Source: Candidatus Poribacteria bacterium (GTDB lineage: Bacteria > Poribacteria > WGA-4E > WGA-3G). From it: a stretch of 64,000 nucleotides of DNA. The notes beneath the pieces were generated by a model, which saw only the letters and a program-made list of their open reading frames with translations, did no database searches and was not told the origin of the DNA. Position numbers and translations under genes: made by a program. Positions 32,812 through 48,668 of this stretch are shown here, in pieces; the first letter of the stretch is position 1, and every line of letters starts with the position of its first letter. The stretch lies in assembly GCA_965261115.1 (NCBI GenBank), contig OZ253447.1:3845287-3909286 (forward strand), read 5' to 3'.

Positions 32812-33661
32812 AGGGCGGAGTCGCATCTTTCGCGAGCCGGAATCCGATAAAACTGGTGCCGATTGCGGGGTGTTGACCGAACCGTGTGGCACACCTTGCG
32901 AATGTCTCTGGGTTTAACCACGAACCGCCTTTCACAATACGGTGACTACCGACCGCGGGTCCCTTTGGATTTCGATCAGGACTACGGTAGTAGAAGGTTT
33001 CTGAATACCAGTCTGCTACCCATTCCCAGACATTACCTGCCATATCGTGTGCACCGTAAGGACTGATCCCCGTGGGGTAAGTGCCAACCGGTTGCAAATG
33101 TGCCCCTGACTGTTGCCAAACGTTTGCGTGGATAGTGGTATCCTTAATGCGTTGTGTGAAGGTGTTTCCCCAGGGCCACCGTTTAGCGTTCGTTCCACGT
33201 GCGGCTTTTTCCCATTCTGCTTCGGTGGGCAGCCGCATGCCTCGCCACGCCGCATAGGCAACAGCCGCATCCCACGAAATACCGATGACAGGATGGTTAG
33301 GCTTTGTTTTTGCAATCTCGGGCCAGATACCGAATTCGCCACCGTAACTGATGGGGGTATGTTCACTATCGGTGCCACCGCTTTCAAGCCAAAACGGATA
33401 ATACTCGGCGTTGGTGACTTCAGTTTTACTGATATAGTAGGCATCCAGATAGATTTTGTGTGCGGGTGCTTCATTCGGGAGGTTATCATCACTCCCCATC
33501 GTAAAGGTGCCAGCGGGGATGAGGCAGAGCTCAGGTTCAGCCAATGCACAAGGTAAGCCCGCTATAACTGCGGAAAGTAGGATGAGGCACCTTATAAACG
33601 GGTAGGCACGAAGACCTACCCTTGTGATGGTGTTATTTTTTCTTTGACGTAAGACGCTCAT
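32801..33661 (-). CDS. formylglycine-generating-enzyme (FGE/SUMF1) domain protein
   Basis: IPAGTFTMGS, HPV.GISW.DA.AYA.W.G.RLPTEAEWEKAARG, GN.WEW..DWY and RI.KGGSW are FGE-sulfatase domain hallmarks. A signal peptide is present. Confidence 0.8.
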   Translation of the reverse strand: MSVLRQRKNNTITRVGLRAYPFIRCLILLSAVIAGLPCALAEPELCLIPAGTFTMGSDDNLPNEAPAHKIYLDAYYISKTEVTNAEYYPFWLESGGTDSEHTPISYGGEFGIWPEIAKTKPNHPVIGISWDAAVAYAAWRGMRLPTEAEWEKAARGTNAKRWPWGNTFTQRIKDTTIHANVWQQSGAHLQPVGTYPTGISPYGAHDMAGNVWEWVADWYSETFYYRSPDRNPKGPAVGSHRIVKGGSWLNPETFARCATRFGQHPAIGTSFIGFRLAKDATPPYEK

Positions 33662-34835
33662 ATTCTTGATAGATTTTCGCGGCTTCTGTATGAGCACCGG
33701 CAAGCTCGTAAGCCTTAGAAAGGTTTAGATAGAAACGCGGTTCAGTTGGTTGTAAGTGGATGGCGGTTTGGTATTGCTCAATTGCTTCAACATAATCTTC
33801 TAACATCAGATAAACCCCGCCGAGGCTGTTACGGTAGGTAGCGACATTCGGCTTATGTGCAATCACCTTTTCATACATTGTTTTCGCCTGTGGATAGTTT
33901 TGCCGTTGAAACTGGACATAGCCGAGTGCTTCATAACCGCGCGTCTCTTGTGGTGCAAGCGTGACGTAACGTTCCAAAGATTGCGTTGCCTCCTGCCATA
34001 ACTTCCGTTTCAGTTGGAGTCTACCGAGTCGGTACCACGCTTCTGCGTTGGTAGGGTTTTGTTGCGCAAATTTTTTGAGATGTGTCAGCTTTTCTTCCTC
34101 AATAGACAGCACTTCAAAACGTTGTAAATTCTCCTGTGCCGCTTTCATTTCACCCATACGACGGTACGTTGTGCCTAAACTGAAGTACGCCTTTGCGTGG
34201 AATGGATCAATTTCAATCAGTTTTTTTAAAGTATCAATAGCGGATTGCCACGCTTCCTTCTGAAGAAAAGCAGTGCCGAGCGTGTAATGTGCTGTCTTCA
34301 AAGTCGGATCGAGTTTAATAGCGCGTTGAAGTTCACTGATGGCAGCATCGGTTCGATTATCACGAAAATAGGCGATGCCTAATAGGGTCCTCGCACGCGC
34401 ATGATCGGCGTCCATTGTAATTGCCTTCTGTAGCACCTGTGTCGCCTGTGCGGAGTCGCCTAAGTGGATGAGTAGTATATCACCAAGTTCACAATACGCT
34501 TCAATATAGTTTTTATCTGCGATTGTTGCCCGTTGAAACGCCTCAGCTGCGGCATGGACTTCCTCGGCACCTTTATAAATCATTCCCAAAACGCAGTGTG
34601 CATCCGCTATTGATCCATCAAGTTTGACCGCCTTCTCTAAATTAGTTCTCGCTTTTTTCTCGTCTCCATGTGTGAGCGCGCGGACCCCTGCGTCATACAA
34701 CCGTGCCGCTTCGGGATGAAACCGTGGCGCGCCAACCGCAAGGAGTGTGTGAAGGAATATAAGAAGTGTGAAGGTGTATTTAAATAGTTGCATACGGCTC
34801 AATGGCATAACCGACACAGCGCGTTGAGGCATCAA
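33633..34835 (-). CDS. TPR repeat protein (exported)
   Basis: About 9-10 tandem 34-aa TPR units (A...Y..G......G....A...F.KAI.LDP). N-terminal hydrophobic signal. Confidence 0.8.
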   Translation of the reverse strand: MMPQRAVSVMPLSRMQLFKYTFTLLIFLHTLLAVGAPRFHPEAARLYDAGVRALTHGDEKKARTNLEKAVKLDGSIADAHCVLGMIYKGAEEVHAAAEAFQRATIADKNYIEAYCELGDILLIHLGDSAQATQVLQKAITMDADHARARTLLGIAYFRDNRTDAAISELQRAIKLDPTLKTAHYTLGTAFLQKEAWQSAIDTLKKLIEIDPFHAKAYFSLGTTYRRMGEMKAAQENLQRFEVLSIEEEKLTHLKKFAQQNPTNAEAWYRLGRLQLKRKLWQEATQSLERYVTLAPQETRGYEALGYVQFQRQNYPQAKTMYEKVIAHKPNVATYRNSLGGVYLMLEDYVEAIEQYQTAIHLQPTEPRFYLNLSKAYELAGAHTEAAKIYQEYERLTSKKK

Positions 34836-35029
34836 TTTGGCTCTATTTTATTCTAAGATACGCGCAATGTCAAGCGGAATCTATGAAAGTAAGCAGGAAA
34901 GAAGGTGTTGAAAAAACGTTGCGGATTTGATAAGTTGATAACGCATGAGATGTCCTCCTAAGTATAATCTAACGTGTAGTGCCTCCTTGATGACTTTGAT
35001 AAATATTTGTGAGATTATTTTTCCGCTTA

Positions 35030-35038
35030 TCGCGTCAC
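35030..35038 (+). promoter_or_regulatory. conserved TCGCGTCAC box in the leader of the sigma-fusion gene (possible ECF-type -10 CGTC)
   Basis: An identical 9-mer lies at 40930-40938, at similar distances (48 and 45 nt) from the two paralogous ATGs. The leaders are alignable from this box to the ATG (shared ATGTGAAATA). Confidence 0.3.
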
Positions 35039-35085
35039 TATATGTTGATGTGAAATAATGAACATTCCCTTTTCAGAGGTATCCG

Positions 35086-38055
35086 ATGAAAAACGATGAT
35101 GCTCAGCTTATCCAACGCGTGCTTGATGGTGATGATACGGCGTTCTCCACACTCGTGAAAAAATATCAGCGATCCGTTCACGCGCTGGCGTGGCGGAAGA
35201 TCGGCGATTTCCATATCGCTGAGGATATTACACAAGAGACGTTCCTGAAAGCGTATCAGAGACTCTCTACACTGAAGGAACCACAGTCCTTTGCGAGTTG
35301 GCTTTATGTGATAACCGCACATCACTGCACAGCGTGGCACCGGAAAAATCGGACGTGGACGCAGTCGTTGGAAGACACGAGCAGCGCACACTTAGAAAAA
35401 GCGACGTATTCTGGATATGTCATTGCGGAGAATGAGCGAATGACAACGGAAGCACAACGCGAAGTCGTCAAAAAGTTGCTTGCGAAGTTGCAGGAGAGCG
35501 ATCGAACTGTCATCACGCTCTATTACCTTGGGGGAATGACGTACGAAGAGATCAGCGAGTTTTTAGGTGTGTCGGAGGCGGCGATTCGGAATCGTCTCTA
35601 CCGTGCACGTCGCCGTTTAAAGAAGGAGGAATCCATGATTAGAGAGGCTTTAGAACATTTCCAAATTACGCCAAATCTTACAAAGAATATCATGCGCGAG
35701 GTTTCGCGTCTGAAACCGGTTATTCCATCAGGCAGTAAATCGTTGGTGCCGTGGGCAATCGCCGTTTCCACAATAGTTGTAATATTTTTGATGTTAGGTG
35801 TCGGTAGTCAATATTTATCTCGTTTCCAGAAACCTTACAGTTTCGATGCTGTGTCAGAGATGACGATTGAACTCATTGAAGCCCCCGTCGTGCTAAACCT
35901 TGAATCCAAGCCAGATGTTCAGACGCAACTTGGAAGCACTGCTGTGTCCAGTATAAACGATGGGTTTGGTCAGCGACCTGATGAGATTTTACTTGCTGCT
36001 GCGCAGGTGGATGGAGAGGACGTTCCTATCTCGAAACAACAGTGGGTTCAGACGAACGAGCCTGGAGGCATAGTGGTAATGGCTTTGGCTGCTGTGCCTG
36101 AAGGCAATCTCTACACCGTTGATGGCATGGGTGATGTCTACAAATTATCAAACAATGAAAACGGATGGCAACGCATCTTCAACATTGGTTCACTGAATAC
36201 CCCTTGGGGTGGCAATCCGCCTATTGCGAAGTGGAACAATACCCTTTACCTCGTCCCGTCTAACGAACTTTTTGCTTCAACAGATGATGGCAAGACATGG
36301 AATTCACTATACGCTTGGCACGAAGGCTATAGATATCCGGTTGAATTGGTGCCGACAGATCAAGCATTTTATCTTGCTTTTGATAACGGTATTTTCCGTT
36401 CTGAGGATACCGGCAAGACATGGAAGCTAATGGACAATGGGTTGACGGGGAGAATTGAATCCTTCGTCAAGATCCAAAATACACTGTTTGCTGGAACAAG
36501 AACCGGACTCTACCGCTTAAACACTGACAACTGGCAACGCTTACAATTTCCGGTGTCTGAAGCCGAAACCATTCAATCGGTAGCGGCAACTCAAGAGAAA
36601 CTCTATGTTGCGGCACAGTTAGACTGGAGAAAACTGAGCAGAGATGATAGGCAGCAAATATCCGAAGGACAGAGACGCTCCTGGTGGATATTTCGTTCAA
36701 CTGACAAAGGAGATTCGTGGACAGATATAACCCCCACAGATGCTTGGACAATCCTTGGGTATCCACCACATATCATACTGATCGCTAAAGAAACAGTGCT
36801 CTTGGCAATAGGTATGAGTGACGGTGTCGTGGTTCGCTCAATTGATGGTGGGAATACATGGGTATACGAGGAGACTACCGGTATTTCTCCTACACGCTTC
36901 AGTGTAACGGAGGCTGTAGCATTCAACGAAAGCACTTTTTATGCAGCAGGAAACCGCGGTATTTATCGCTCTACCAATGGTGGCGTATCGTGGCACCGGT
37001 TTAATAGAAAGATGAAGAGTCGGGTTGATAACCTTATCACATTCAGAGAAACTGACAACGGACAGGGTACATCTGCAGCACTTTACGCGAGGGTCAACGG
37101 AGAGTTAGTTAAAACCACCGACTACGGTCATTCTTGGAAAACCGTTCAGGTGAAAATACCGATGAAAGCGCCTCACAGAGAAGATCCACCGCTTATTGAC
37201 GAAATAGTATCGTCTGGTGATGCGCTTTATGCAAAGGGTAAGGTTCCTTTTGAAGAAGTGCGCCTGTATCGCGTCTCTACAAATAGCAATACACTCATAC
37301 GGATTCAAGAAGTACCGGTCTTTTACCCGCTGGGGTTAATGGATAAGGCGTTCATTGAGCAGCTCCAAGGGCGTCTTCATGGTGCGACCCAGTTTTTCAA
37401 GCAGTTGGCACAACCGAATCTCCAGTGGTCAGATGAACTCATACGCGGTGGCTTGCGTGGCGCGTTTGCTGTTAGCGACGATACGTTCTATATGGAATAC
37501 AATTATAAACTCTTCCGATGGAGGCCTGGTGAGGCAGAATGGTACGATACCGAAATGGAAGAAACCTCTGAAATCTCAAGGGATCAGATGATGCGCGGAT
37601 TTGAACTTGCGGTTTCAGGGAGCACTGTCTATGTTGGAAAACGCGATGGACACCTCGTTGTCTCGTTTGATAAAGGAAATAATTGGCTTGATCTCACACC
37701 AAGCCTGCCGTTTCCTGTTAAACATTTCAACGATATTATGTTTGCGGGTTCCACAGTATATGTGGCAACCGACGCAGGCGTTATGACCTCAGATAATGGA
37801 AAAAACTGGCGTGCGATCACCGATGCTACAGGAACGTCTCTCACCGTGGATCGATTGGCAGTTGATGGCACAAACATTTATGGTGTTTCCAAAACGGGTA
37901 TCTATCGGTTGCAAACGGATACCGGTTTGTGGGATCAAATTGCACCTGAGATACCAGAAGCATCGGATTCGGTGACTTCATTTGATATTGATGGAAATGT
38001 GTTGTATGTCGGAACTTATGGCAGCGGCATGTTTTACTTCAATCTTAGCCAATAG
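35086..38055 (+). CDS. ECF sigma factor fused via one TM helix to extracytoplasmic BNR/Asp-box beta-propeller domain(s)
   Basis: Residues 1-183 form a complete sigma70 region 2 plus region 4 (DDTAFSTLVKKYQRSVHALAWRKIGDFHIAEDITQETFLKAY; MTYEEISEFLGVSEAAIRNRLYRARRRLK). The TM helix is LVPWAIAVSTIVVIFLMLGVG. At least 8 S-x-D-x-G-x-(T/S)-W Asp-box repeats follow (STDDGKTW, SEDTGKTW, STDKGDSW, SIDGGNTW, STNGGVSW, TTDYGHSW, SFDKGNNW, SDNGKNW). Confidence 0.8.
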   Translation: MKNDDAQLIQRVLDGDDTAFSTLVKKYQRSVHALAWRKIGDFHIAEDITQETFLKAYQRLSTLKEPQSFASWLYVITAHHCTAWHRKNRTWTQSLEDTSSAHLEKATYSGYVIAENERMTTEAQREVVKKLLAKLQESDRTVITLYYLGGMTYEEISEFLGVSEAAIRNRLYRARRRLKKEESMIREALEHFQITPNLTKNIMREVSRLKPVIPSGSKSLVPWAIAVSTIVVIFLMLGVGSQYLSRFQKPYSFDAVSEMTIELIEAPVVLNLESKPDVQTQLGSTAVSSINDGFGQRPDEILLAAAQVDGEDVPISKQQWVQTNEPGGIVVMALAAVPEGNLYTVDGMGDVYKLSNNENGWQRIFNIGSLNTPWGGNPPIAKWNNTLYLVPSNELFASTDDGKTWNSLYAWHEGYRYPVELVPTDQAFYLAFDNGIFRSEDTGKTWKLMDNGLTGRIESFVKIQNTLFAGTRTGLYRLNTDNWQRLQFPVSEAETIQSVAATQEKLYVAAQLDWRKLSRDDRQQISEGQRRSWWIFRSTDKGDSWTDITPTDAWTILGYPPHIILIAKETVLLAIGMSDGVVVRSIDGGNTWVYEETTGISPTRFSVTEAVAFNESTFYAAGNRGIYRSTNGGVSWHRFNRKMKSRVDNLITFRETDNGQGTSAALYARVNGELVKTTDYGHSWKTVQVKIPMKAPHREDPPLIDEIVSSGDALYAKGKVPFEEVRLYRVSTNSNTLIRIQEVPVFYPLGLMDKAFIEQLQGRLHGATQFFKQLAQPNLQWSDELIRGGLRGAFAVSDDTFYMEYNYKLFRWRPGEAEWYDTEMEETSEISRDQMMRGFELAVSGSTVYVGKRDGHLVVSFDKGNNWLDLTPSLPFPVKHFNDIMFAGSTVYVATDAGVMTSDNGKNWRAITDATGTSLTVDRLAVDGTNIYGVSKTGIYRLQTDTGLWDQIAPEIPEASDSVTSFDIDGNVLYVGTYGSGMFYFNLSQ
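35623..35637 (+). promoter_or_regulatory. internal Shine-Dalgarno AAGGAGG + in-frame ATG (codon 184) at the sigma/tether junction
   Basis: AAGGAGG (35623-29), 5 nt, then ATG (35635-37), in frame. The same arrangement occurs at 41520-41534 and 38481-38495. Confidence 0.5.
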
Positions 38056-38291
38056 TAAAACAAATTGTAGGGAGGGGCTATTTGCGCCTTGCGAATGAAG
38101 TGCCTCCCTATTTTCCATTCATCCAATCACCCAATTAACTTCCCGACTCGATATTGAAGTTCGCATTCACTATCATCTTCAGATGATGTTCAAGTTTTCG
38201 CGCGGACGGAATCCACCGAATTGCCTCAAGAATAAGTTTCTCCTATAAACGGACTTCTTTCGGGGTCATTCAATTTTCAAATTGTCTGAAT

Positions 38292-38325
38292 CGCGGAGGA
38301 CGCGGAGGGCGCGGAGGACGCGGAT
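38292..38325. repeat. 9-bp tandem repeat (GCGGAGGAC x ~3.7)
   Basis: CGCGGAGGACGCGGAGGGCGCGGAGGACGCGGA was read directly. Intergenic. Confidence 0.85.
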
Positions 38326-38430
38326 TTTCGTGTTTAGGGATGCCAAAATCATAAGGGAATTTAGCTGTTTTCCAGAGAATTGAATGGCCCTGTACTTCTT
38401 TTCGGACGTATGCACTTTTGGTTGGGTTTA

Positions 38431-38439
38431 TGGTATAAT
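38431..38439 (+). promoter_or_regulatory. extended -10 promoter element (TGGTATAAT) for the sigma-less paralog
   Basis: TGnTATAAT match, 54 nt upstream of ATG 38493. Confidence 0.55.
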
Positions 38440-38480
38440 TCCATTAACAGATGAGATGCGTCTTTACCGTGTATGTCAGC

Positions 38481-38495
38481 AAGGAGGAACCCATG
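38481..38495 (+). promoter_or_regulatory. SD AAGGAGG + ATG start of the sigma-less paralog
   Basis: AAGGAGG, then AACCC, then ATG. This is identical to the internal site at 41520-41534. Confidence 0.7.
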
Positions 38496-40841
38496 ATTCG
38501 GAATGCTTTAGATAATTTTCAAATCACACCGAATCCCGGCAAGAACGTGATATATGAGATGCCGCGCGCCAAGTTTGCTGCTTCCTCTGATGGTAAACCG
38601 TTTGTGCGGTGGGTAATCACTGCTTTAGTGATGGTCGTGCTGCTGATCCAGACACATCGGGTTTTAGCCAACCCAGAGGACTACACCCGATGGGGTTTGC
38701 CTGAAGGTGCAAAAGCGCGGATCGGGAAAGGCACCTTCACTGATATGCAGTTGTCCAGCGATGGTACTCGCTTGGCGATTGCGAGTTCCGCGGGTGTATG
38801 GCTTTATGATGTTAGTACTGGTGATGAAATTGCGCTTATCACAGAGAATACGGATTTAATCGGATTGGTGGCATTTTCTCCTGACGGTGCAACACTTGCT
38901 ACTGCTGGTGGGGACAACGAATGTCGTATCTGGGATGTTGAAAGTCAGAAACTGCTACTAACATTCAAGCTACCTGATTATTGGATCCATACATTGACAT
39001 TCTTGGATGATGGAAGAACCCTTGTCGGTGAGGGATCGATTGACAAAGCTTCACACGATCTGATTGGTGGAGATCCTTGGAGATGGGATGTCCCTAAGGT
39101 CTGGATGTGGGATGTTTCCTCTGGAAAGCAGTTAGACACTTTCACCACCAAGTTACCGAGATTTAATCCGCTTAAAGATGCACGGACCAGTGTTAGGGTG
39201 AAGGCATTTGCGGATGGTACGCGTGTTATCTTTGCTTTTGAGAACAGAGACGGAACGATTAGTGTTAAAGATGGACGTACGAATCGCGAGATAGTTACAC
39301 TTCCAAAACCTGAGAGACAGGTAAGAGCGTTCAGTTTTACGCCAGATGGCAGAAGGCTTGCGGTTGCGACTTCCAGAAACGTACATCTCTGGGATCTTGT
39401 TGATACAGGAGAACAGTTGGCAACGTTTCCAAAAAGGGTCGCGGATTTCGAGGGGTATCCAGCGATACTTGCATTCTCAAAAGATGGAAAAACCCTTGCT
39501 GTTGCCGGGTTAGATGACATTGAGATATGGAATATGGATACATATTCGCAGGTTGCTACACTTGAAAATAAGAGTGGTGGTTTGTGGGAATTTGTGTTAT
39601 CGGCGGATGGTGCAACCGTTGTAACTATGAATCACCACGGCACAGTGGATTTATGGTCGGCACAGACCGGCAAACATGAACGTACCTTGACGACGGGATG
39701 GACCAGTAGGTTTTCCACGTTGGTGTTCTCGCACGATGGGAAAACGATTGCGAGCAGCACGGGTAGCAAAATCCATCTGTGGGATACAAACACTTGCACC
39801 GAAAGATTGCGGATGCAACTTCCCGGACGCGTTGAAGGTGTAAACAAACACATTGAACCGAATTTGCGAGCTGCTGTGCCCATGGTACGTGGGAGCGAAA
39901 TCGCCAGTTTAGCATTTTCTGAATATAACACGCCTCTTGCCGCTTCTGCATATAGTACCACCCTCGCCGTTTGTACCGTTTCCGACAAAGTTGAAATATG
40001 GGATGCCGCTACAGGAAAATATAATACTGATTACACGCTCCCGGGCAGACTTCGTAGGGTGCCGCATGGCCCATTGACTGATGATTTAGGTACTGTGCCA
40101 GTGCCGCGAACCCCGGCGATATACCATATCTACGCAACATCATTTGAGAGCACAGGGCATACCGTACATGCAGCCGCTTTCTCACCAAACAGTGAAAAAC
40201 TGGCTATTGAAATCCAGAATGGTGTGATGGAGATATGGGACATTCTTACCCAAAGACGCTTATGCACGCTCCCAGGTCAAGTCCCAAACTGGAGTGCGGC
40301 GTTCACGTTTACTTTCGCATTTACACAGGATGGTGAGGTGCTTGCAATCGGCAAAGGAACGGAGGTCCACTTGTCGAATACCGATACTGGCGAGACATTT
40401 GCTACATTCAGTGTTGCTAAGGAGAAACTGGATTTGATAGATAAATTACAAAAATTTCTCGGCTTGAAGCGTTTTGATGTGCCAGTGGGTGCTGTGGCAT
40501 TGGGACGAGCTGGGGAACCTCTCATCGTTGCTGCGAGTGCAGGTAAAACAATCTATTTATGGGATGTCGCGACCCGGAAATCTGTAATGCTTGAAGGGCA
40601 CACAAGTGAAGTCTGTAAATTAGCATTCGCGCCCAACGCGACTTTTCTGGCAAGTGGAGATATAGATGGCACAATTCACCTGTGGTTGCTACCTGCCGGA
40701 CACAAACTTGCCACCTTCAAGCCATACGTGAGCCCCGTTAAAGAATTGGTGTTTGCGCCTGATGGGAAAACCCTCGCAAGCACAAACCTGTATTCCCGCT
40801 TTGCTGGAACGATACTCCTATGGGACGTTCCACCTAAATAA
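38493..40841 (+). CDS. single-pass membrane WD40 beta-propeller protein (sigma-less paralog of the fusion proteins)
   Basis: It starts MIRNALDNFQITPN..., homologous to the tether MIREALEHFQITPNL of both fusions. The TM helix is FVRWVITALVMVVLLI. WD40-like blades follow (VAFSPDGATLATAGGDNECRIWDV; LAFAPNATFLASGDIDGTIHLW). Confidence 0.8.
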   Translation: MIRNALDNFQITPNPGKNVIYEMPRAKFAASSDGKPFVRWVITALVMVVLLIQTHRVLANPEDYTRWGLPEGAKARIGKGTFTDMQLSSDGTRLAIASSAGVWLYDVSTGDEIALITENTDLIGLVAFSPDGATLATAGGDNECRIWDVESQKLLLTFKLPDYWIHTLTFLDDGRTLVGEGSIDKASHDLIGGDPWRWDVPKVWMWDVSSGKQLDTFTTKLPRFNPLKDARTSVRVKAFADGTRVIFAFENRDGTISVKDGRTNREIVTLPKPERQVRAFSFTPDGRRLAVATSRNVHLWDLVDTGEQLATFPKRVADFEGYPAILAFSKDGKTLAVAGLDDIEIWNMDTYSQVATLENKSGGLWEFVLSADGATVVTMNHHGTVDLWSAQTGKHERTLTTGWTSRFSTLVFSHDGKTIASSTGSKIHLWDTNTCTERLRMQLPGRVEGVNKHIEPNLRAAVPMVRGSEIASLAFSEYNTPLAASAYSTTLAVCTVSDKVEIWDAATGKYNTDYTLPGRLRRVPHGPLTDDLGTVPVPRTPAIYHIYATSFESTGHTVHAAAFSPNSEKLAIEIQNGVMEIWDILTQRRLCTLPGQVPNWSAAFTFTFAFTQDGEVLAIGKGTEVHLSNTDTGETFATFSVAKEKLDLIDKLQKFLGLKRFDVPVGAVALGRAGEPLIVAASAGKTIYLWDVATRKSVMLEGHTSEVCKLAFAPNATFLASGDIDGTIHLWLLPAGHKLATFKPYVSPVKELVFAPDGKTLASTNLYSRFAGTILLWDVPPK

Positions 40842-40929
40842 GACCTTCACCTATAGACAATCATTATTTCGGTTCCTGAAACTTACTATTCAAGAAATTG
40901 CAGAATTCTGCAACCGTTTTCGCCCTAAG

Positions 40930-40938
40930 TCGCGTCAC
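40930..40938 (+). promoter_or_regulatory. conserved TCGCGTCAC box (second copy)
   Basis: As at 35030-35038. Here it is preceded by TGCAAC about 18 nt upstream, a loose ECF-like -35 AAC. Confidence 0.3.
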
Positions 40939-40982
40939 AAGGTATTAATGTGAAATACTAAAAACTCCTCTGGAGATATTCG

Positions 40983-43931
40983 ATGAGAAATGACGATACT
41001 CGACTGGTTCAATGTGTCCTTGAAGGCGATGATGCCGCTTTCGCTGAACTGGTGAAAAAGTACCAGCAGCCGGTTCACGCGCTTGTGTGGCGGAAGGTTG
41101 GAGATTTCCATGTCGCTGAGGAGATTACACAAGACACTTTCCTGAAAGCATACCAGAAACTGACGACACTCAAGGAGCCGCAGCGTTTTGCGAGTTGGCT
41201 TTATGTGATAGCCACAAACCGTTGTAAGGCATGGCTGCGTAGGAAGCGTTTATGGATGCAGTCGCTGGATGCCACAGGTGGCATGCAGTTGGAAAAGGCT
41301 ACATATTCTGGGTATGTCATTTCGGAGAACGAACGCGTAACAGCAGAATCACAGCGCGAAGTCGTCAAAAAGCTGCTCGCGAAGTTACAGGAGAGTGAGC
41401 GGACTGTCATGACACTCCACTATTTCGGGGAGATGACGTGTGAAGAGATTAGCAAGTTTTTGGGTGTATCGGTGGGTGCGATTAAGAGTCGCCTCAGCCG
41501 TGCGCGCCACCGCTTAAAGAAGGAGGAACCCATGATTCGCGAGGCTTTAGAACATTTCCAAATCACACCGAATCTTACAGAGAATATCATGCGCGAGATT
41601 TCGCGTCTGAAACCGGTTACCCCGTCAGGCGGTAAACCGCTCGTGCCGTGGGCAATCGGTGTTTCCACAATAGCAGTCGTCCTTTTGATGTTAGGTATCG
41701 GAAACCATCAATACCTGTCGCGTTTTCAAAAACCGTATAGTTTCGACGCACCATCAGAGATGGCAGTTGAACTCATTGAAGCACCGATTGTGCTGAACCT
41801 TGAAGCCAAACCGGATATTCGGACGCAGTTTGGAAGTGTCAATACACCGAGCGAGGGTGCTATTTCCAACCAGCAACCTAACGACGTTTCGGCATCGGTT
41901 GCAGACGCAGAATCAGATGAGACATCTGAAAACCACGCACATTGGAAGTTGCCCAAAGCGGCGAAAGCGCGCTTCGGAAAAGGTGGGATTACCACAATCC
42001 AGTTTTCGCCAGATGGCACCCTACTTGCAGTCGGTAGCAATATCGGGGTATGGCTGTATGATGTGGAAACAGGTGAAGAGAAATCTCTGTTTGGCAGCGG
42101 CGTGTGTGAAGCCCTCAGCTTTTCACCTGATGGCCGTTTCCTTACCGTTTCTTCTCGGGAGACGCTCATCCAATTGTGGGAGATTGCTACCGAGCGCGAA
42201 GTGCCGCTTATCGACTTGTACGGGGCTGCTTCCGTATTGCGATTCTCTTCGGATGGGAAAACGCTTATCGGTTTGAGTAGTTCCGGTGCAATTACCCGAT
42301 TGAATATTGAGAACGGGAAAGGGAAAACAAAACACCTCAAAACTGGATTATTCGGGATCGGTCTCTTTAGTTCGGAGGATTTTCAGGGTGTCTACGCGAT
42401 GACAAGCGATAAAATCGCGATTGGAAAAGCGGACGGGACGATCCAGTTATGGGACGTAGCAACCCGTAAAAAGTTATCAACGCTCAGAGGACACATAGAT
42501 TTGCCGCTGCAACCGTTGAATAAACCTGTGCATCGCATATTTAAAAATAATTGGGTCTTAGCAGTGGCGTTTTCGCCGGATGGCACGCGTCTCGCCAGTG
42601 GCAGCACAGATACGACAGTCCGATTGTGGGATACCACTGGTGACACGGATTGGATGACGCTGCAGAAACATACTGGACCGACAAATGTGCTGGCGTTTTC
42701 ACCCGATGGAAAAATGCTTGCCAGTGGCAGTACCGATAAAACAGTGCAATTGTGGGACACCACCACTGGCGACCCCCTCGCGACGCTCACTGGACATATC
42801 AACGGTATTACTGCGTTAGCATTTTCACCCGATGGTCGGACACTCGTCAGCGGGAGTACGGATGGCACAATCCGATTCTGGCAGACAGCGACTGGGGCTC
42901 CAGTGGATACCCTTATCACTGGGCACACACACTCCATAAAAGCGGCGACCTTCTTTGAGGATAGTTCCACACTTGTCAGCGCGGCGTTTAACGGTGAAAT
43001 TACCTTTTGGAATGTGGAAACATCGCAAAAGTCTACTGTCCAAAATAGTAGACATCGGGATTGGTATTCAGCAGTGGCGTTTTCGCCAGATGGCACGAAA
43101 CTCGTCAGTGCAGCGGCGGATGGTACTATAGCTTTCGGTAAGTTTCCTACTACTACAAAGCCAGATAATCTAATTCGGTTGACGGATGTATCGACTGGAG
43201 ACGAACTTGCGAGATTGCCGCGAGGCACCGAAAAACTCATCTTTTCTCCTGACGATAGAACTAAAACTGTAGCGATTACTAATCTTGACATTCGTTTGTG
43301 GAATACGGAAACAGGCGATGAATTGATAATTCCTGTTAATGATGACCTGAAACCCGGCTTTCGCGGCAATCTACCAATGATTTTGGCAGCGGCGTTTTCA
43401 CCGGATGGTAGATGGCTTGTGAGTGGCACTACAGAAGGCGACATCCGAATGTGGGACGTTGCGACCGGTGAAGTTTTGACTGTCTTTGCAGAACCGACAG
43501 AACAAGAGAATCTGGGGCATATTTCGGCAGTGGCGTTTTCACCGGACCGCGCCTTGCTCGCTGCTGGCACACACACGCAACTCCATTTATGGGATGTGCG
43601 TACCGGTCATAAAATTTTTTCGGTTAGTACTGTGCATAAACGCGGTTGGGGTATATACCATGATTATTCAAGACCGTTGGTGTTTTCGCCGGATGGCACA
43701 ATTCTTATCAATGGGCATAACAGCGGTACAATCCAGTTATGGGATGTTGAGACAGGAGATAGAATTGCTGTGCTTGATGGACATACACAGGAAGTGGAGA
43801 CGTTGAAATTTTCACCTGATGGGGAAACACTGGTTAGTACGGCGCAGGATGGCACAATTTTCTTGTGGGATTGGGATGAGGCTATCACCGGTTCGGCCAA
43901 CACCGACGAATATAAGGGGTTAAAGAAATAA
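40983..43931 (+). CDS. ECF sigma factor fused via one TM helix to extracytoplasmic WD40 beta-propellers
   Basis: Residues 1-183 are a complete ECF sigma, highly similar to 35086's. The TM helix is LVPWAIGVSTIAVVLLMLGIG. More than 12 WD40 repeats follow (AVAFSPDGTRLASGSTDTTVRLWD, VLAFSPDGKMLASGSTDKTVQLWD, ALAFSPDGRTLVSGSTDGTIRFWQ ...). Confidence 0.85.
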   Translation: MRNDDTRLVQCVLEGDDAAFAELVKKYQQPVHALVWRKVGDFHVAEEITQDTFLKAYQKLTTLKEPQRFASWLYVIATNRCKAWLRRKRLWMQSLDATGGMQLEKATYSGYVISENERVTAESQREVVKKLLAKLQESERTVMTLHYFGEMTCEEISKFLGVSVGAIKSRLSRARHRLKKEEPMIREALEHFQITPNLTENIMREISRLKPVTPSGGKPLVPWAIGVSTIAVVLLMLGIGNHQYLSRFQKPYSFDAPSEMAVELIEAPIVLNLEAKPDIRTQFGSVNTPSEGAISNQQPNDVSASVADAESDETSENHAHWKLPKAAKARFGKGGITTIQFSPDGTLLAVGSNIGVWLYDVETGEEKSLFGSGVCEALSFSPDGRFLTVSSRETLIQLWEIATEREVPLIDLYGAASVLRFSSDGKTLIGLSSSGAITRLNIENGKGKTKHLKTGLFGIGLFSSEDFQGVYAMTSDKIAIGKADGTIQLWDVATRKKLSTLRGHIDLPLQPLNKPVHRIFKNNWVLAVAFSPDGTRLASGSTDTTVRLWDTTGDTDWMTLQKHTGPTNVLAFSPDGKMLASGSTDKTVQLWDTTTGDPLATLTGHINGITALAFSPDGRTLVSGSTDGTIRFWQTATGAPVDTLITGHTHSIKAATFFEDSSTLVSAAFNGEITFWNVETSQKSTVQNSRHRDWYSAVAFSPDGTKLVSAAADGTIAFGKFPTTTKPDNLIRLTDVSTGDELARLPRGTEKLIFSPDDRTKTVAITNLDIRLWNTETGDELIIPVNDDLKPGFRGNLPMILAAAFSPDGRWLVSGTTEGDIRMWDVATGEVLTVFAEPTEQENLGHISAVAFSPDRALLAAGTHTQLHLWDVRTGHKIFSVSTVHKRGWGIYHDYSRPLVFSPDGTILINGHNSGTIQLWDVETGDRIAVLDGHTQEVETLKFSPDGETLVSTAQDGTIFLWDWDEAITGSANTDEYKGLKK
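41520..41534 (+). promoter_or_regulatory. internal SD AAGGAGG + in-frame ATG (codon 184)
   Basis: AAGGAGG (41520-26), AACCC, then ATG (41532-34). The offset from the gene start is 549 nt, exactly as in the 35086 gene. Confidence 0.5.
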
Positions 43932-43932
43932 A

Positions 43933-44754
43933 ATGAAACGATCATTTCTCTATGCCTTATTCATCGTTCTAACGCTTATCACGGGCGGATATGTAACCGC
44001 AGGTCTTGATAAAGGACTTGTCGTTTATTTCACGTTCGACAACGTCCTGGGTAAGCGGATTCTTGATGAATCTGGTAACGGACTTGATGCTGAAATTGTC
44101 AAAGAGACTCAATTTGTCAAGGGTAAATATGGGAACGCTGTCCATATTACTAATGATACTGAAGATTGTGTGAATGTACCTGCCGCCGATGAACTGGAAA
44201 TCAGTGAAGAGATCACAATGATGGCATGGGTATATCACGAGAATTGGAAGGGGAGCTCTTCACAGTGGTTTGATAAAGGGTGTTATAGTGCGAGATCCAA
44301 TAGTATATACGGTATGGGAGTTTTCGATGAAAATGATGATCCTGATCTCGGATTCCCTTCAGGCGTTGGGATTATTTTAGGGACGCGAGAATTTCATGTG
44401 CGAATCGTAATAAAGAAGGAAATGAGGAATGGAACGTGGCATCATATTGTCGGCGTATGTGAGGATCTCAACGTGAGAATGTATCTTGATGGTGAAAACA
44501 TTCATGAATCTAATCAAAGAGCACCTTTTAATTTTAATGGCATAAACGAGGAAGATTTGCGGATCGGATGTGCCAAAGGTAAGCCTGCGTATGCGTTTGC
44601 GGGAGGTTCTATTGACGAAGTCGCGATATGGAATCGTGCGCTTAGTGAAACCGAAATCAGGGCTGTGATGCGGGGTACCTTGTTCGCGGTTTCACCGAAG
44701 GATAAAATCGCTACAACATGGGGAAATATTAAGCGGAAAGCACTTCAACCGTAG
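43933..44754 (+). CDS. secreted LamG/concanavalin-A-like lectin domain protein
   Basis: Signal peptide. LVVYFTFDN...DESGNG.DA......FV.GKYGNA and the C-terminal SIDEVAIWNRALSETEI are typical of Laminin_G_3 domains. The ATG lies 1 nt after the stop of 40983..43931. Confidence 0.72.
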   Translation: MKRSFLYALFIVLTLITGGYVTAGLDKGLVVYFTFDNVLGKRILDESGNGLDAEIVKETQFVKGKYGNAVHITNDTEDCVNVPAADELEISEEITMMAWVYHENWKGSSSQWFDKGCYSARSNSIYGMGVFDENDDPDLGFPSGVGIILGTREFHVRIVIKKEMRNGTWHHIVGVCEDLNVRMYLDGENIHESNQRAPFNFNGINEEDLRIGCAKGKPAYAFAGGSIDEVAIWNRALSETEIRAVMRGTLFAVSPKDKIATTWGNIKRKALQP

Positions 44755-44793
44755 CGAAACCGATAGTCTAAGGTTCTAAACGTACTCACCGAT

Positions 44794-44898
44794 ATTACGT
44801 AGGACTTACGCATTTTTCCATGATAACGAACGTATGACGCACTGCAGGCGGGGTTTAAAACCCCGCCTGCGAGGGAGGCTGCGTGAGTCCTATTACGT
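44794..44898. mobile_element. 91-bp MITE-like element (44801-44891) with 7-bp target-site duplication
   Basis: TIRs AGGACTTACGCA (44801-12) and TGCGTGAGTCCT (44880-91) match at 11/12. They are flanked by a perfect direct repeat ATTACGT (44794-800 and 44892-98). Confidence 0.65.
44844..44870. terminator. GC-rich hairpin inside the MITE, between convergent genes
   Basis: GCAGGCGGGG-TTTAAAA-CCCCGCCTGC. The 10-bp stem is extendable by TTT/AAA. It sits between the LamG gene (+) and the 1256-aa gene (-). Confidence 0.6.
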
Positions 44899-47800
44899 TA
44901 AAGTTCCGCACTGACGGTCATCTCCAGACGGTGTTCGGGTTTTCGCTCTTTCGTTGAGAGTAGACGGTAATTGAGTCGCAGTAGTAGATCGGTGAATTTC
45001 CGTAATCTGTAGTCTGCTATCGTCCGGATTTCGTGGCTGATGCCTTCGTAGAACGTATATTGCGCGAAGGGTATGCCGCCACTGCTTTTGCCGTAGCCGA
45101 GTTTGTAGTTGAAATCAATGCGTCCCTTACCGATGAGACTGTAGGTGACGCGGCTCTCAAACGAAAAGGTGCGCGTTTTGGCTTCGGGTTCCTCGTCAAG
45201 TTGCTCCTCGTCGGTTGTCCGTTTATAGCCACTGATACCGCTCCATCGTAGGGTCTTACTCAACTGGTATCGGATATTTAGTTCAGTTATCTGCTCAAAC
45301 TGACGCAAGTCTGAGATAGGTGTCGGAGAAGGCTCTCTCATTTCCTTGGTAGGATCGGTTTCTTGTGCGAGGTCTTCAAAATCGAATTGGCTATATTTTT
45401 CGGTTTCCCGACGTTGTTCCCTGTTCGCGCCAACAGAGAGACGTTGGGTCGGATTCATAGAGAAGCCAACATCCCATGTGTTGTGGTGTCTGTGGCGTTC
45501 TTGGTTATTAATCCGCTTGTTGAGCGTCTCCCCTGCCCGGAAGTTAAGTTCAAAACTGAACGCCGTTGAGGGGACGAATTCGAGTCGATGGTGTTGGTTC
45601 ACTCGCCCGAAAACCGTATCTGAACCTTGTAGATTTTGGAGTAGATATAGCGAAACAGCATCTTCTACCTCCTGTTCCTCAGTCAGCCAGAGTCGTGTTT
45701 GACCTCTGAGCGCGTTCAGAAACCATTCCATCCGAGAAGGACGCACGCTTTGCTGTGATGCTGGCGGTGTTGGCCGTAAACTATCACCTTTCAACATCGC
45801 CTCTCGTTGCAGCTGTTGTTGCCGCGCCCGGTTGCGCCGTGCGAAAAACTGGCGGGGTTGAAAACGGAGGCGAAAATCCGCATCTACCGCCGTTGTTGGT
45901 TTATCACCGACGTGTTGGTGGATTTTGATGTAAGTGCCTTCTTCGGCATCCTCTACGTAGTGTAGATCGTCCAACTTCACGTAATATCCGTCCCCGGGTT
46001 GGAGCCGGACACCGGTATGTGGATGGATGTTGGTATAGACTTCGCGGCGTTGGCTTGTCAATTTTTTATCTAATTCGTAGGTGAGTTCTATGTCAATTGC
46101 CCGGCTTAGGGGTGTCAACTGAATATTAATATCTGCGAGTTGCGTCGTTGTATTCGCACCGAGATCGGTGTGTGCTTTGAGCGTCCGACGGGCGAGGTTT
46201 GCGGTCAGATTCATACCGCCGCTGAGAAAGGATTTCTGTTGTGAAAAGATGCCGACTTTCCATGTGCGTCCGGTCGTATTCCGTTGCCAATCCGATAAAC
46301 CGATCGGTTCGTCATCAACAGTGAGCAACGGCTCTTTGGCGTAAGCCTCCTCAAGTTCGTAGCTGGTATTCAGAGATGCCCAACTAAAATCAACGAGATT
46401 GATACGTCCAATTGCGCGGTTCCGCTTTCGGTTGAGCGTGGCATTACGCGCCTCGTTTGATTCCACCCTGCCCAATGTTCCCAAAATTCTGAACGGTCCG
46501 AGCGGATAAGCTAAGTTGCCTTCCTGCCGTAACTTCTGCTGCGATTGTGTCCGTGTTGAATCCTCATCCTCCACACGCGAACTACTCCGATAGTCATCCC
46601 AACGGAGATTCGGTAATTTCTGTAGGGGCGAGGTCACCTCGCCCCTACGGCCTTTAGACAGGTTTTGTTCCGATGCAGGGGTTGCTTTCTCTTGCCCACT
46701 GATGCGCGTGTTTCCGCGTCTGGTGGTAGCGGTTATACCTCCACTGCCTGACCGGCGATTGAAGTTCACACCCCAATTGAAATTATTGCGGATCGTTGCG
46801 TTTGTCGTTGGTGATGCTTCTGTTCCGTCCGCCAACCCCCCTTTATCCCCCCTTATCAGGGGGGTGGGTGGTTCTTTCTCTTCGCTTCTACCGATGCCAG
46901 CGTCAACCGCCAACCAATCTGTTGGAATCAGTTGGATGTCAAAGTTCGCAGTTCTCTCATCTCGTGCGGTTTGTGAAGGCGAGGTAACCTCGCCCCTACC
47001 AAACAGGAACGCGTCATCAAAACCCTCTTTGGTGTATTGCGTTTCATAACGGGAGCGATTCCGATTACTACTTGACGCACCGACAGGGACAAAGTCGGCG
47101 TCCATCGCTCGGATGTCGAGATTTGTGTTCAATTTAGGTCGCAGTTTATCTGTCCATGTCGCAAAGTCCCAATCCGCGTAACCGGTCAGTTTCCACGCCT
47201 GACTCACCTCTTTACGGTCTATGGTGGAATAGGTGTTCTTATCAAGATTGCTGTAGGCGAGTTCACCTTCGATCCACGCTTTTTCAGTAATGTTCACGCG
47301 GCTTTCTAACCCCCATACAGTATGTTTCTGGGGTGCTGTGAGCAGCGACCCATCTTCTTCGGGGTCAAGGATATTTTGACGGAGTGCCTCGATATCGGTC
47401 TCTTCAAGTATGATTAAAGCCTGTTCCGGTTCCTTCAGGTCTGCCTCAACGGCATAGGAAGCACCGAGTGTTATCCATTCTCCGTAGGGGCGAGGTAACC
47501 TCGCCCCTACACTGAGTCCATAGAGATTTTGTTGATATGCGCGATCTTCTGGGATGTATTCAAAGTCGATCCGAATTGTGTCGTTGCTTGTGATGAGGTG
47601 TTTGCTGTTGAACTCGACGATTGGGTCTCCATATTCTCGGATGATGTAATCGTTGTTTTCACCGCGCCGCATCCTTTCACCATTCAGCCAGACGATTTCA
47701 CTGCCTGCCTTTACGATGACGTATTGCCCATCGACGGTGAGCCGATATTCGCTCCGTCCTTCTTCGCCGCGAAGGACTAAGCTGGTAGACTGCCCTTTCG

Positions 47801-48668
47801 GAATGGCACTTGGAATAAGGTGGAAGCTCCCCCACTTGAAATCGCCTTCGACTTGTATGCCTTCCAAGGCACGTGGAAAAAAGATGAATTCAGAGGTGCC
47901 AAGCGACCCCTCAAAGTCGCCTAAGGTGCCTTTCATGTTTGGGTGTGTGATACGAATCAATTTCTGATCGATGTCTTGAATATTTTCGGTTGTTCCTTCG
48001 GGTTGAATAGGTAGATCTTGGTCGGATAGTAGTGCGAGGACGCTGATGTTTTCGGAGACTTTACCTTCTACATTGACACGGAGTTCCTGATTCTGTGAGA
48101 TGCTACGTCCGCTGCCGAGCGAAATACCGAATGTTTGGCTACCGGACACTTCGAGTTGTGATGTCCCGTCACCTGTAGAGGAGGTGCTTCCAAGTTCACC
48201 GAAAGGCTGTCCAGTCACCTTTTCAGATTCGTCAGTTTTGGGGAGGAGACCATCAGTAGATTCTGTTGATGGAGTTTGCGTGCCATAAAGGTCGCGTTTG
48301 TAGACCTCTTTAATTGCGAAAGGCAGCGTGCGGTAGGTTATCTTTAACTTGTAAGGGGTGGTCGTAGCATCGGGTGCTTCTATAGTGATTTTTCCTGAAT
48401 AGAAATCGATTTGATAGTCTATACTTCGCACGAGGGTTTTTCCATCCACTTCGATTAACTGTTCAGTGTCAGGGAGGATTGGTGGGTACTTCACCGTGAA
48501 TTCCCGCTCACCCGTTTTTAGTTCAATGGATTCGGTTTTCTGGAGGACGGAAAAGGTCGGGAGTTCGAGGGCTTTAGTTTTGTCGTCAGCGGATTCTTGT
48601 GCCGTGCTTCCGGAACGTGGTAGCAGGCACAAACAGAAGGAGACAAGGAACAAAAGTGGGGTACGCAT
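44898..48668 (-). CDS. very large secreted protein, probable outer-membrane beta-barrel
   Basis: 1256-codon uninterrupted ORF with signal peptide MRTPLLFLVSFCLCLLP..STAQ. It has long stretches of alternating hydrophobic/polar residues rich in Y/R/N/T/G. The C-terminal strand is RLEMTVSAEL. No named family was recognised. Confidence 0.55.
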   Translation of the reverse strand: MRTPLLFLVSFCLCLLPRSGSTAQESADDKTKALELPTFSVLQKTESIELKTGEREFTVKYPPILPDTEQLIEVDGKTLVRSIDYQIDFYSGKITIEAPDATTTPYKLKITYRTLPFAIKEVYKRDLYGTQTPSTESTDGLLPKTDESEKVTGQPFGELGSTSSTGDGTSQLEVSGSQTFGISLGSGRSISQNQELRVNVEGKVSENISVLALLSDQDLPIQPEGTTENIQDIDQKLIRITHPNMKGTLGDFEGSLGTSEFIFFPRALEGIQVEGDFKWGSFHLIPSAIPKGQSTSLVLRGEEGRSEYRLTVDGQYVIVKAGSEIVWLNGERMRRGENNDYIIREYGDPIVEFNSKHLITSNDTIRIDFEYIPEDRAYQQNLYGLSVGARLPRPYGEWITLGASYAVEADLKEPEQALIILEETDIEALRQNILDPEEDGSLLTAPQKHTVWGLESRVNITEKAWIEGELAYSNLDKNTYSTIDRKEVSQAWKLTGYADWDFATWTDKLRPKLNTNLDIRAMDADFVPVGASSSNRNRSRYETQYTKEGFDDAFLFGRGEVTSPSQTARDERTANFDIQLIPTDWLAVDAGIGRSEEKEPPTPLIRGDKGGLADGTEASPTTNATIRNNFNWGVNFNRRSGSGGITATTRRGNTRISGQEKATPASEQNLSKGRRGEVTSPLQKLPNLRWDDYRSSSRVEDEDSTRTQSQQKLRQEGNLAYPLGPFRILGTLGRVESNEARNATLNRKRNRAIGRINLVDFSWASLNTSYELEEAYAKEPLLTVDDEPIGLSDWQRNTTGRTWKVGIFSQQKSFLSGGMNLTANLARRTLKAHTDLGANTTTQLADINIQLTPLSRAIDIELTYELDKKLTSQRREVYTNIHPHTGVRLQPGDGYYVKLDDLHYVEDAEEGTYIKIHQHVGDKPTTAVDADFRLRFQPRQFFARRNRARQQQLQREAMLKGDSLRPTPPASQQSVRPSRMEWFLNALRGQTRLWLTEEQEVEDAVSLYLLQNLQGSDTVFGRVNQHHRLEFVPSTAFSFELNFRAGETLNKRINNQERHRHHNTWDVGFSMNPTQRLSVGANREQRRETEKYSQFDFEDLAQETDPTKEMREPSPTPISDLRQFEQITELNIRYQLSKTLRWSGISGYKRTTDEEQLDEEPEAKTRTFSFESRVTYSLIGKGRIDFNYKLGYGKSSGGIPFAQYTFYEGISHEIRTIADYRLRKFTDLLLRLNYRLLSTKERKPEHRLEMTVSAEL
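46622..46648. repeat. REP-like palindrome P2 inside CDS
   Basis: GTAGGGGCGAGGT-C-ACCTCGCCCCTAC (13-1-13, perfect). It is translated as RRGEVTSPL on the minus strand. Confidence 0.9.
46847..46864. repeat. C/G-tract hairpin inside CDS
   Basis: CCCCCCT-TATC-AGGGGGG, preceded by a second CCCCCCTTTAT. It is translated within ...PLIRGDKGGLADG. Confidence 0.8.
46973..46999. repeat. REP-like palindrome P3 (left arm decayed) inside CDS
   Basis: GTGAAGGCGAGGT-A-ACCTCGCCCCTAC. The left arm matches at 10/13. It is translated as GRGEVTSPS, in the same frame as P2. Confidence 0.85.
47484..47510. repeat. REP-like palindrome P4 inside CDS
   Basis: GTAGGGGCGAGGT-A-ACCTCGCCCCTAC, perfect. It is translated in a different frame, as VGARLPRPY. 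Confidence 0.9.

Follow-up and report, generated by a model that had tools for sequence, protein, structure and literature searches.

In the two-gene operons that encode an extracytoplasmic function (ECF) sigma factor and its anti-sigma factor, such as sigW-rsiW and rpoE-rseA, translation of the two genes is coupled, and the Shine-Dalgarno (SD) sequence of the downstream gene normally lies within the last sigma codons. Two proteins can also arise from a single frame by in-frame internal initiation, as is known for infB (IF2 alpha/beta), clpB and cheA (long/short). Bacterial internal starts have been mapped genome-wide by retapamulin ribosome profiling, according to a preprint (bioRxiv 10.1101/520783). 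Other systems combine the sigma and anti-sigma functions in one polypeptide activated by regulated intramembrane proteolysis, for example the Prc- and RseP-released IutY (ECF243) of Pseudomonas putida and the predicted ECF48, ECF52 and ECF53 fusions (PMC8999054, PMC5411451). ECF57, a group enriched in Planctomycetes, comprises ECF sigmas with a WD40-type C-terminal extension, with an average of 5.3 copies per planctomycetal genome (PMC8999054, PMC7826278). ECF sigma fusions have so far been treated as one-protein signalling units. In this work, we analysed a 64 kb stretch of contig OZ253447.1 from an uncultured Candidatus Poribacteria bacterium, hereafter the window, which encodes two sigma-tether-propeller fusions, g1 and g3, and a sigma-less paralog, g2, lying between them. 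At the junction between the sigma domain and the tether, both fusion genes carry the motif AAGGAGG-N5-ATG, i.e. an SD followed by an in-frame ATG. Comparison with relatives suggests that this motif is probably a selectively maintained internal translation start, in which case a fusion gene would yield both a full-length and a sigma-less protein. The features concerned are as follows.

35086-38055, + strand: g1, fusion gene of 989 aa (ORF list, Pfam), in which an ECF sigma domain (residues 1-182, with regions 2 and 4) is followed by a tether, a single membrane helix and a beta-propeller of the BNR/sortilin type
35623-35637, + strand: internal SD of g1, AAGGAGG at 35623-35629, 5-nt spacer, in-frame ATG at 35635-35637 (codon 184)
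38481-38495, + strand: likely true start of g2, SD AAGGAGG, 5-nt spacer, ATG
38493-40841, + strand: g2, sigma-less paralog of 782 aa counted from the ATG at 38493 (ORF list, Pfam), with the tether helix MIRNALDNFQITPN, a membrane helix and WD40 propellers
40983-43931, + strand: g3, fusion gene of 982 aa (ORF list, Pfam, NCBIfam), in which tether and membrane helix link an ECF sigma domain to WD40 propellers
41520-41534, + strand: internal SD of g3, AAGGAGG at 41520-41526, 5-nt spacer, in-frame ATG at 41532-41534 (codon 184)

The pattern AAGGAGGNNNNNATG has exactly three matches in the window, all on the + strand: AAGGAGGAATCCATG at 35623-35637, and AAGGAGGAACCCATG at both 38481-38495 and 41520-41534. 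In shuffled versions of the window 0.10 matches are expected, and none of 100 shuffles reached three; as the three copies sit in paralogs, however, this is not the relevant null, and the comparative tests presented below are. The ATGs at 35635 in g1 and 41532 in g3 are each in frame and 549 nt past the first ATG of their own gene, which a pattern scan and the open reading frames (ORFs) confirm as the first-pass annotation had described it. That annotation also took the same motif to be the real start of the sigma-less paralog, and this proposal has gained support. The g2 frame can be extended to an ATG at 38451; that codon has no SD and lies only 12 nt after a TGGTATAAT box, and the g2 orthologs of three other genomes have no upstream in-frame ATG, so that 38493 is the likely start. 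The purifying selection described below for these orthologs points the same way. DNA homology between g2 and g3 begins exactly at AAGGAGG, with 89% identity over 55 nt from the SD.

Domain models place the motif at the very end of the sigma domain. In g1, Pfam identifies Sigma70_r2 at residues 23-89, Sigma70_r4_2 at 127-178, Sigma70_r4 at 131-180 and Sigma70_ECF at 6-182, while g3 matches NCBIfam TIGR02937 with 100 bits (cut-off 42.9). Sigma regions 2 and 4 are present and regions 1 and 3 absent, as in ECF (group 4) members of the sigma-70 family. The best NCBIfam match of the sigma domain is SigW, and position 183 of the 187 of this profile falls at residue 181. Since the sigma models end at residues 178-182, the ATG of codon 184 sits where a free-standing ECF sigma would stop, and its proposed location at the sigma/tether junction of both fusions thus holds. 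The further remark that the KKEE codons encode the end of region 4 is roughly right, as the helix predicted there by AlphaFold2 (AF2) in g3 spans residues 164-189. Past the ATG come about 38 tether residues (MIREALEHFQITPNLTENIMREISRLKP...), a hydrophobic segment at 223-240, a conserved RFQKPYSFD motif and then the propeller, which corresponds to Pfam matches to Sortilin-Vps10 and PSII_BNR in g1 and to a WD40 match of 265 bits in g3 that g1 does not share.

35752-35805, + strand: hydrophobic segment WAIAVSTIVVIFLMLGVG of g1, codons 223-240 (from the translation), a single membrane helix as predicted from hydrophobicity
41649-41702, + strand: hydrophobic segment WAIGVSTIAVVLLMLGIG of g3, codons 223-240, predicted membrane helix

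In g3, AF2 models a helix at residues 225-236 of this segment, with a low predicted local distance difference test score (pLDDT). From this layout we infer a topology with the sigma domain inside, one membrane pass and the propeller sensor outside. If so, the proteins resemble IutY in that one polypeptide combines a cytosolic ECF sigma at its N-terminus with one membrane segment and a C-terminal domain outside the cytoplasm, and the likely logic would also be that of a membrane-held sigma needing release or activation. Unlike in IutY-type hybrids, the sensor is a beta-propeller, and neither tether nor sensor matches a known anti-sigma family: the tether alone has no match in Pfam or NCBIfam even at E 0.1 to 1, and scans with the same two collections found no recognisable anti-sigma domain of the FecR, ZAS or RskA type. 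With ECF57, compared by description, the family shares an ECF core and many copies per genome, and WD40-like repeats follow the core in g3. It differs from that group by the membrane helix between sigma and propeller, which would put the propeller outside the cytoplasm, by its apparent restriction to Poribacteria, and by the fact that the same N-terminal module also carries a BNR/sortilin propeller, as in g1.

The N-terminal module (sigma, tether and membrane helix) is 74% identical between g1 and g3 over 284 aa and is joined to unrelated sensors, BNR/sortilin in one case and WD40 in the other. The similarity runs on through a conserved APxVLNLE motif and then fades, a layout that suggests shuffling of the domains that follow a conserved signalling module.

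The N-terminal 284 residues gave 1357 protein matches, of which the named ones all belong to Candidatus Poribacteria, which are sponge symbionts; nearly all of the 120 matches listed cover both sigma and tether. All 120 are shorter than 500 aa, and the genes in the loci studied here mostly encode 900-1300 aa. A profile of the tether run against 1.84 billion proteins retrieved only 262 representatives, almost all with the tether at residues 184-262. As the named matches are all from Poribacteria and the tether has no match in Pfam or NCBIfam, the sigma-tether module appears to be specific to this phylum and to define a large family. For the comparative work, species-representative genomes were scanned with the tether alignment, which matched at least 587 stretches, and 71 loci were kept (L001-L071), from metagenome-assembled genomes of Poribacteria and a few records titled only 'uncultured bacterium'. 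A tblastn search of these loci with the tether returned 176 distinct junctions; 157 of them, from about 70 Poribacteria loci, are fused and have complete flanks.

Among the 157 fused copies, codon 184 is ATG in 148, GTG in one and a non-start codon in eight. The SD-forming codons that precede it run against the codon usage of the background, taken as the long ORFs of the family's loci. Codon 181 is GAG in 135 copies and GAA in 11, i.e. GAG accounts for 92% of its Glu codons, versus 38% in the background. Codon 180 ends with G in 140 of 157 copies, and this G is kept while the amino acid changes: Lys is encoded by AAG (92) rather than AAA (15), Glu by GAG (23) rather than GAA (1), Gln by CAG (4) and never CAA, and Arg by AGG (19) or CGG (1) and no other codon. 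With AAG at 34% of Lys codons, GAG at 38% of Glu codons and AGG at 8% of Arg codons in the background, the codons that form the SD are the non-preferred ones. Of the relatives that have ATG184, 129 of 148 keep the combination xxG-GAG.

Might such a pattern reflect only the protein sequence or the codon context, through a local mutational or codon-pair preference or gene conversion among paralogs? We consider this very unlikely. Other sites are admittedly as conserved or more so, including Lys2 (AAA in 127 of 130; 40986-40988), where this is expected right after a real start, Lys210 in the tether (AAA in 144 of 148; 41610-41612), a very conserved synonymous site, and Asp41 (GAT in 149 of 157), and the paralogs of the family are numerous and clustered, which would favour conversion. 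However, most such sites, like most of the other slowly evolving two-fold sites, follow the A/T-ending bias of these genomes, whereas the SD sites oppose it, and other KK and EE pairs in the alignment do not have the bias of the SD sites, with about 26-72% G. Moreover, the neighbouring synonymous sites vary freely, with Leu178 (TTA 96, CTA 26, TTG 19), Pro183 (CCG 99, CCC 32) and Ile185 (ATA 86, ATT 57) all mixed, so that conversion has not homogenised the junction. A constraint of this type also cannot explain why members devoid of the ATG have lost the SD synonymously while retaining K-E-E-P.

This coupling between SD and ATG was assessed in a pooled set of 164 junctions. In the genome set, codon 184 is ATA, ATC, CTC, GTC or GTA in the eight fused copies with a non-start codon, and together with the GTG copy the SD is lost in eight of nine. 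To these were added seven further family proteins with Ile, Leu or Val at residue 184 and an unchanged K-[KQ]-E-E-P, whose DNA was fetched (L072-L078). None of the seven keeps xxG-GAG; their codons are AAG GAA (two), CAG GAA (one), CAA GAA (one) and AAA GAG (three). A scan of metagenomes with a degenerate DNA pattern for more non-ATG members produced one unrelated chance match, L079. The pooled junctions are distributed as follows.

ATG with SD: 129 junctions
ATG without SD: 19 junctions
non-ATG with SD: 1 junction
non-ATG without SD: 15 junctions

The association is strong (Fisher, 4e-11), the motif being lost in 15 of 16 non-ATG members, mostly by synonymous change with K-E-E-P unchanged. 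The first-pass annotation had suggested looking for synonymous variation of the KKEE codons among relatives; in these 164 junctions, the SD is conserved against codon bias where the ATG is kept and varies synonymously almost only in members that have lost it. By parsimony, the ATG state changed about 8 times and the SD state 17 times, with at least six distinct ways of breaking the SD. SD evolution was also described by a two-state model, which was fitted to the tree and simulated 20,000 times. At least 15 of the 16 non-ATG positions were SD-less leaves with a frequency of 0.006, and among the simulations with a similar overall number of SD-less leaves, 1 of 5239 was as extreme; given a simple neighbour-joining tree and a crude model, these P values are approximate. 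As for the seven added members, the sigma-tether ORF ends at 338-419 aa in several public assemblies and the propeller has an ORF of its own, which may indicate real splits, decaying copies or assembly frameshifts.

The internal site has the properties of a strong ribosome-binding site. Poribacteria do use SDs, since GGAGG or GAGG precedes 113 of 140 true starts of family genes, with a spacing of 6 nt versus 5 nt for the internal motif. The internal SD is complementary to the 3' end of 16S RNA and lies within the 4-9 nt before an in-frame start codon that characterise internal starts. With duplex energies computed for the anti-SD ACCUCCUUA, the median is -11.7 kcal/mol at the junction, the value also obtained for g1 (35623-35637), versus -7.1 kcal/mol at the genes' own 5' starts, and in 124 of 134 genes anti-SD binding is stronger at the junction than at the 5' site of the gene itself. 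No site in the coding sequence surpasses the junction in 111 of 157 genes, and only 0.4% of the other in-frame ATGs of these genes (n=2282) have an SD at or below -10 kcal/mol. Regarding local folding, the 15-nt stretches that end +31 to +45 past the internal ATG (about +17 to +45) are the most open of the surrounding 1080 nt, and the stretch from SD to ATG ranks 112 of 1066 for openness, about the top 10%.

As in known internal starts, a properly spaced SD precedes an in-frame AUG within a longer ORF at a domain boundary, and the short product would be a C-terminal portion with a domain organisation of its own. The differences are that the case made here is a comparative one, that the boundary is a junction between a sigma factor and a membrane sensor, that the site recurs in hundreds of paralogs across a phylum, and that the internal SD is stronger than the 5' one.

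A site that is the strongest anti-SD match of the coding sequence, lies at a domain boundary and precedes the membrane helix by about 40 codons might instead serve to pause the ribosome, anti-SD binding giving the sigma domain time to fold or aiding membrane targeting. The ATG would then be incidental and encode a hydrophobic Met, in keeping with the replacement of Met184 by Ile, Leu or Val in some members. We regard this as quite unlikely, as a pause site needs no start codon, yet the loss of the SD tracks that of the ATG, its spacing to the ATG is fixed at 5 nt as in real starts, and the same element is the start of sigma-less paralogs. In addition, SD-induced pausing in ribosome profiling has itself been seriously questioned.

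Other functions of the motif were also considered. A programmed frameshift site of the dnaX or prfB type was rejected on inspection, as no slippery heptamer follows the SD; A_AAA_AAG occurs in some members only, upstream of and overlapping the SD. For an internal sigma-70 promoter driving a separate short transcript, a consensus scan of 34800-44900 gave 12 sites versus 14.8 expected, none of them convincing inside the sigma-coding parts. The GGAACC hexamer within the motif resembles an ECF -35 element, but by inspection no CGTC is found 16-17 nt after it. No Rfam match to a structured RNA was found in the window.

Twelve junctions have no intact sigma upstream. The g2 family, found in the window and in L031, L034 and L062, each time lies between two fusion genes and has no sigma remnant except RLK-E-x-P-like codons just upstream, and it keeps the SD at the same spacing. 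It is intact in the four genomes, with ratios of non-synonymous to synonymous substitution rates (dN/dS) of 0.19-0.27, and a value around 0.2 indicates purifying selection on these sigma-less genes. In L014, L035 and L051, the sigma-less copy directly follows a fusion gene and is preceded by a relic of about 30 nt of the sigma 3' end, including its stop codon. The neighbouring fusion gene is devoid of its internal SD, an anecdotal observation since it represents one evolutionary event. At position 7916 of L042, the sigma sequence is intact, with a TAA nonsense codon seven codons before the internal ATG, and at 10001 of L064 a precise deletion joins the -35 element of the promoter to the junction. 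Two other copies have a frameshifted sigma (L043, 17372) and a 5'-truncated one (L055, 16165). The tether helix MIRxALxNFQ is conserved in the sigma-less proteins, and their genes retain an SD at the junction position. Such proteins thus appear to have been derived repeatedly from fusions, by deletion or nonsense mutation, and to be viable products with this ATG as their only start. All sigma-less copies examined look fusion-derived, and none ancestral.

The origin of these copies bears on the alternative that the motif is a relic, i.e. that an anti-sigma-like gene, formerly separate, was fused to a sigma gene by loss of the stop codon and left behind its ribosome-binding site and start, which would have been kept since by inertia and by the need for K-K-E-E-x-M. 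The position of the ATG exactly where ECF sigma models end fits such a history, as does the sequence ATGAT, which always puts a +1-frame TGA over the ATG as in overlapping stop-start junctions. The placement of the SD in the last sigma codons is likewise that of sigma/anti-sigma operons such as sigW-rsiW, SigW being also the best NCBIfam match, and residues E181 and E182 are themselves conserved, with parsimony ranks for the three codons of only 6th to 20th of 78. However, nearby synonymous sites are well mixed at a median nucleotide distance of 0.33 within the family, so that inertia alone is insufficient. Nor would it account for the conservation of non-preferred codons, for a G kept at codon 180 across four amino acids, or for an SD that disappears synonymously specifically in the members devoid of the ATG. 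Unlike in sigW-rsiW-type operons, no stop codon interrupts the Poribacteria fusions, whose frame continues, and the split versions (L042 and the deletions) are fusion-derived; no unfused ancestor was recognised among the 262 tether-profile representatives of the 1.84 billion proteins. We therefore find it unlikely that the motif is only a vestige. Of the two possibilities left standing by the first-pass annotation, a lost stop codon or two products, it is the second that the comparative evidence from the 164 junctions favours.

Several observations nevertheless weigh against an internal start under selection. The three synonymous sites are conserved, yet they are not unique outliers: by parsimony on the neighbour-joining tree, codons 182, 181 and 180 rank 6th, 13th and 20th for fewest changes among 78 two-fold sites. 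With ranks that are only moderate, the argument rests mainly on the anti-bias direction of the conservation, its independence from the amino acid at codon 180 and the coupling to the ATG. Codon 182 (35629-35631 and 41526-41528) is GAA in 147 of 155 Glu cases and GAG in 8, versus 62% GAA in the background; it matches the SD sites in conservation, yet anti-SD pairing, in which its A's take no part, does not account for this, and a preference for an A-rich spacer or for the GGAACC hexamer may be the reason. Furthermore, 19 of 148 ATG members have no SD, which indicates that the site is dispensable in some lineages, and several of the added non-ATG members are in genes split after the tether, so that general decay or relaxed constraint could contribute to the coupling. 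Ribosomes translating from the 5' start could also occlude the internal site. Finally, AF2 was run on residues 1-290 of g3 with 84 homologs, asking whether the tether docks on sigma as an anti-sigma domain does. Both sigma domains were modelled with pLDDT values of about 70-90, for an overall predicted template modelling score of 0.33, but the tether was not modelled with confidence, pLDDT staying below 50 over residues 188-290, which leaves a sigma-binding role of the short product unsupported.

Should the internal start operate, a single transcript, probably driven by an autoregulated promoter of the ECF type, would be translated into two proteins, the full-length sigma-tether-membrane helix-propeller protein and, by ribosome initiation at codon 184 of the fusion mRNAs, a sigma-less tether-membrane helix-propeller protein starting at Met184. 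As the latter would share the tether helix and the sensor domain with the fusion, it is tempting to speculate that it modulates fusion signalling as a partner, a decoy or a trans-acting anti-sigma-like subunit; the first-pass annotation had likewise proposed that it could compete with the fusion or regulate it. The putative promoter elements of the cluster are listed below.

35011-35038, + strand: ECF-type promoter candidate of g1, GAGATT (-35-like), spacer, GCGTCAC (-10-like)
38431-38439, + strand: TGGTATAAT, putative extended -10 element of the housekeeping (sigma-70) type, 54 nt upstream of the g2 start
40910-40938, + strand: ECF-type promoter candidate of g3, GCAACC, 17-nt spacer, (G)CGTCAC

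The ECF-type candidate, TTGCAGAATTATGCAACC followed after 16-17 nt by GCGTCACTAT, is located about 60-80 nt upstream of the fusion genes (40901-40938 and 35011-35038). An AAC-type -35 and a CGT-type -10 element are expected of autoregulated ECF promoters. Of 137 family members, 89 have GCGTCAC upstream, its distance from an element of the GCAACC, GCACCA or GAGACT type being conserved, and the -35-like hexamer varies by paralog group (GCAACC, GCACCA, GAGACT, GAGATT, GAAACT). This arrangement suggests autoregulation with paralog-specific promoter recognition. The g2 orthologs of L031, L034 and L062 keep TGgTATAAT about 55-70 nt before their start. Other sigma-less copies are also preceded by TATAAT boxes, which in L014, L035 and L051 directly follow the stop codon of the gene before. 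Sigma-less paralogs, which have a housekeeping-type rather than an ECF-type -10 element, may perhaps be expressed constitutively while the fusions are autoregulated.

A more specific proposal, which we put forward tentatively and hold to be possible rather than probable, is that each fusion gene is a complete sigma/anti-sigma module in one frame. The 5' start would provide a membrane-held sigma and the stronger internal start an excess of sigma-less tether and sensor acting as partner or inhibitor, this excess setting the threshold in trans; g2 and other constitutively transcribed sigma-less paralogs would form an additional layer. If this is the case, the phylum, with hundreds of these genes, would possess a large and so far unrecognised class of surface-sensing regulators with two products each and 'eukaryote-like' propellers as their building blocks.

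A conserved internal start would make such fusions two-protein systems in one frame, so that their stoichiometry, inhibition and activation would need to be modelled differently. It would also be a clean, phylum-wide example of selection on synonymous sites keeping an internal ribosome-binding site, with natural knock-outs in the members in which ATG has become an Ile, Leu or Val codon together with synonymous loss of the SD. In the literature, we came across no account of this Poribacteria sigma-tether-propeller family or of such fusions with a conserved internal start where sigma and sensor meet. A term search of the IutY mutagenesis paper gave no instance of 'internal' or 'translation'. The single-cell genomics paper on Poribacteria of 2014 reports abundant WD40 proteins, and a term search gave no instance of 'sigma' in it (PMC3909097). 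Our findings point to the WD40 and BNR propeller proteins of these sponge symbionts as possible envelope sensors wired to transcription. They also bear on the annotation of Poribacteria genomes, in which gene callers sometimes start these genes at residue 184.

Other features of the region include two repeats between g1 and g2. At 38068-38110, 13 nt past the g1 stop, the 8-nt arms TAGGGAGG / CCTCCCTA form a perfect inverted repeat around 27 nt, and ATTTTCC comes next. This could be a terminator that a consensus terminator scan missed because of the long loop. At 38292-38324, the tandem repeat CGCGGAGGA is present in 3.7 copies, with GGAGG in each unit. The cluster is flanked upstream by a minus-strand gene for a 400-aa TPR protein (33633-34835). 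On the other side, a minus-strand ORF of 1256 aa at 44898-48668 has no Pfam match, and a LamG/concanavalin-like protein of 273 aa is encoded at 43933-44754, its ATG at 43933 being stated to overlap the g3 stop codon by one base, with the end of g3 at 43931.

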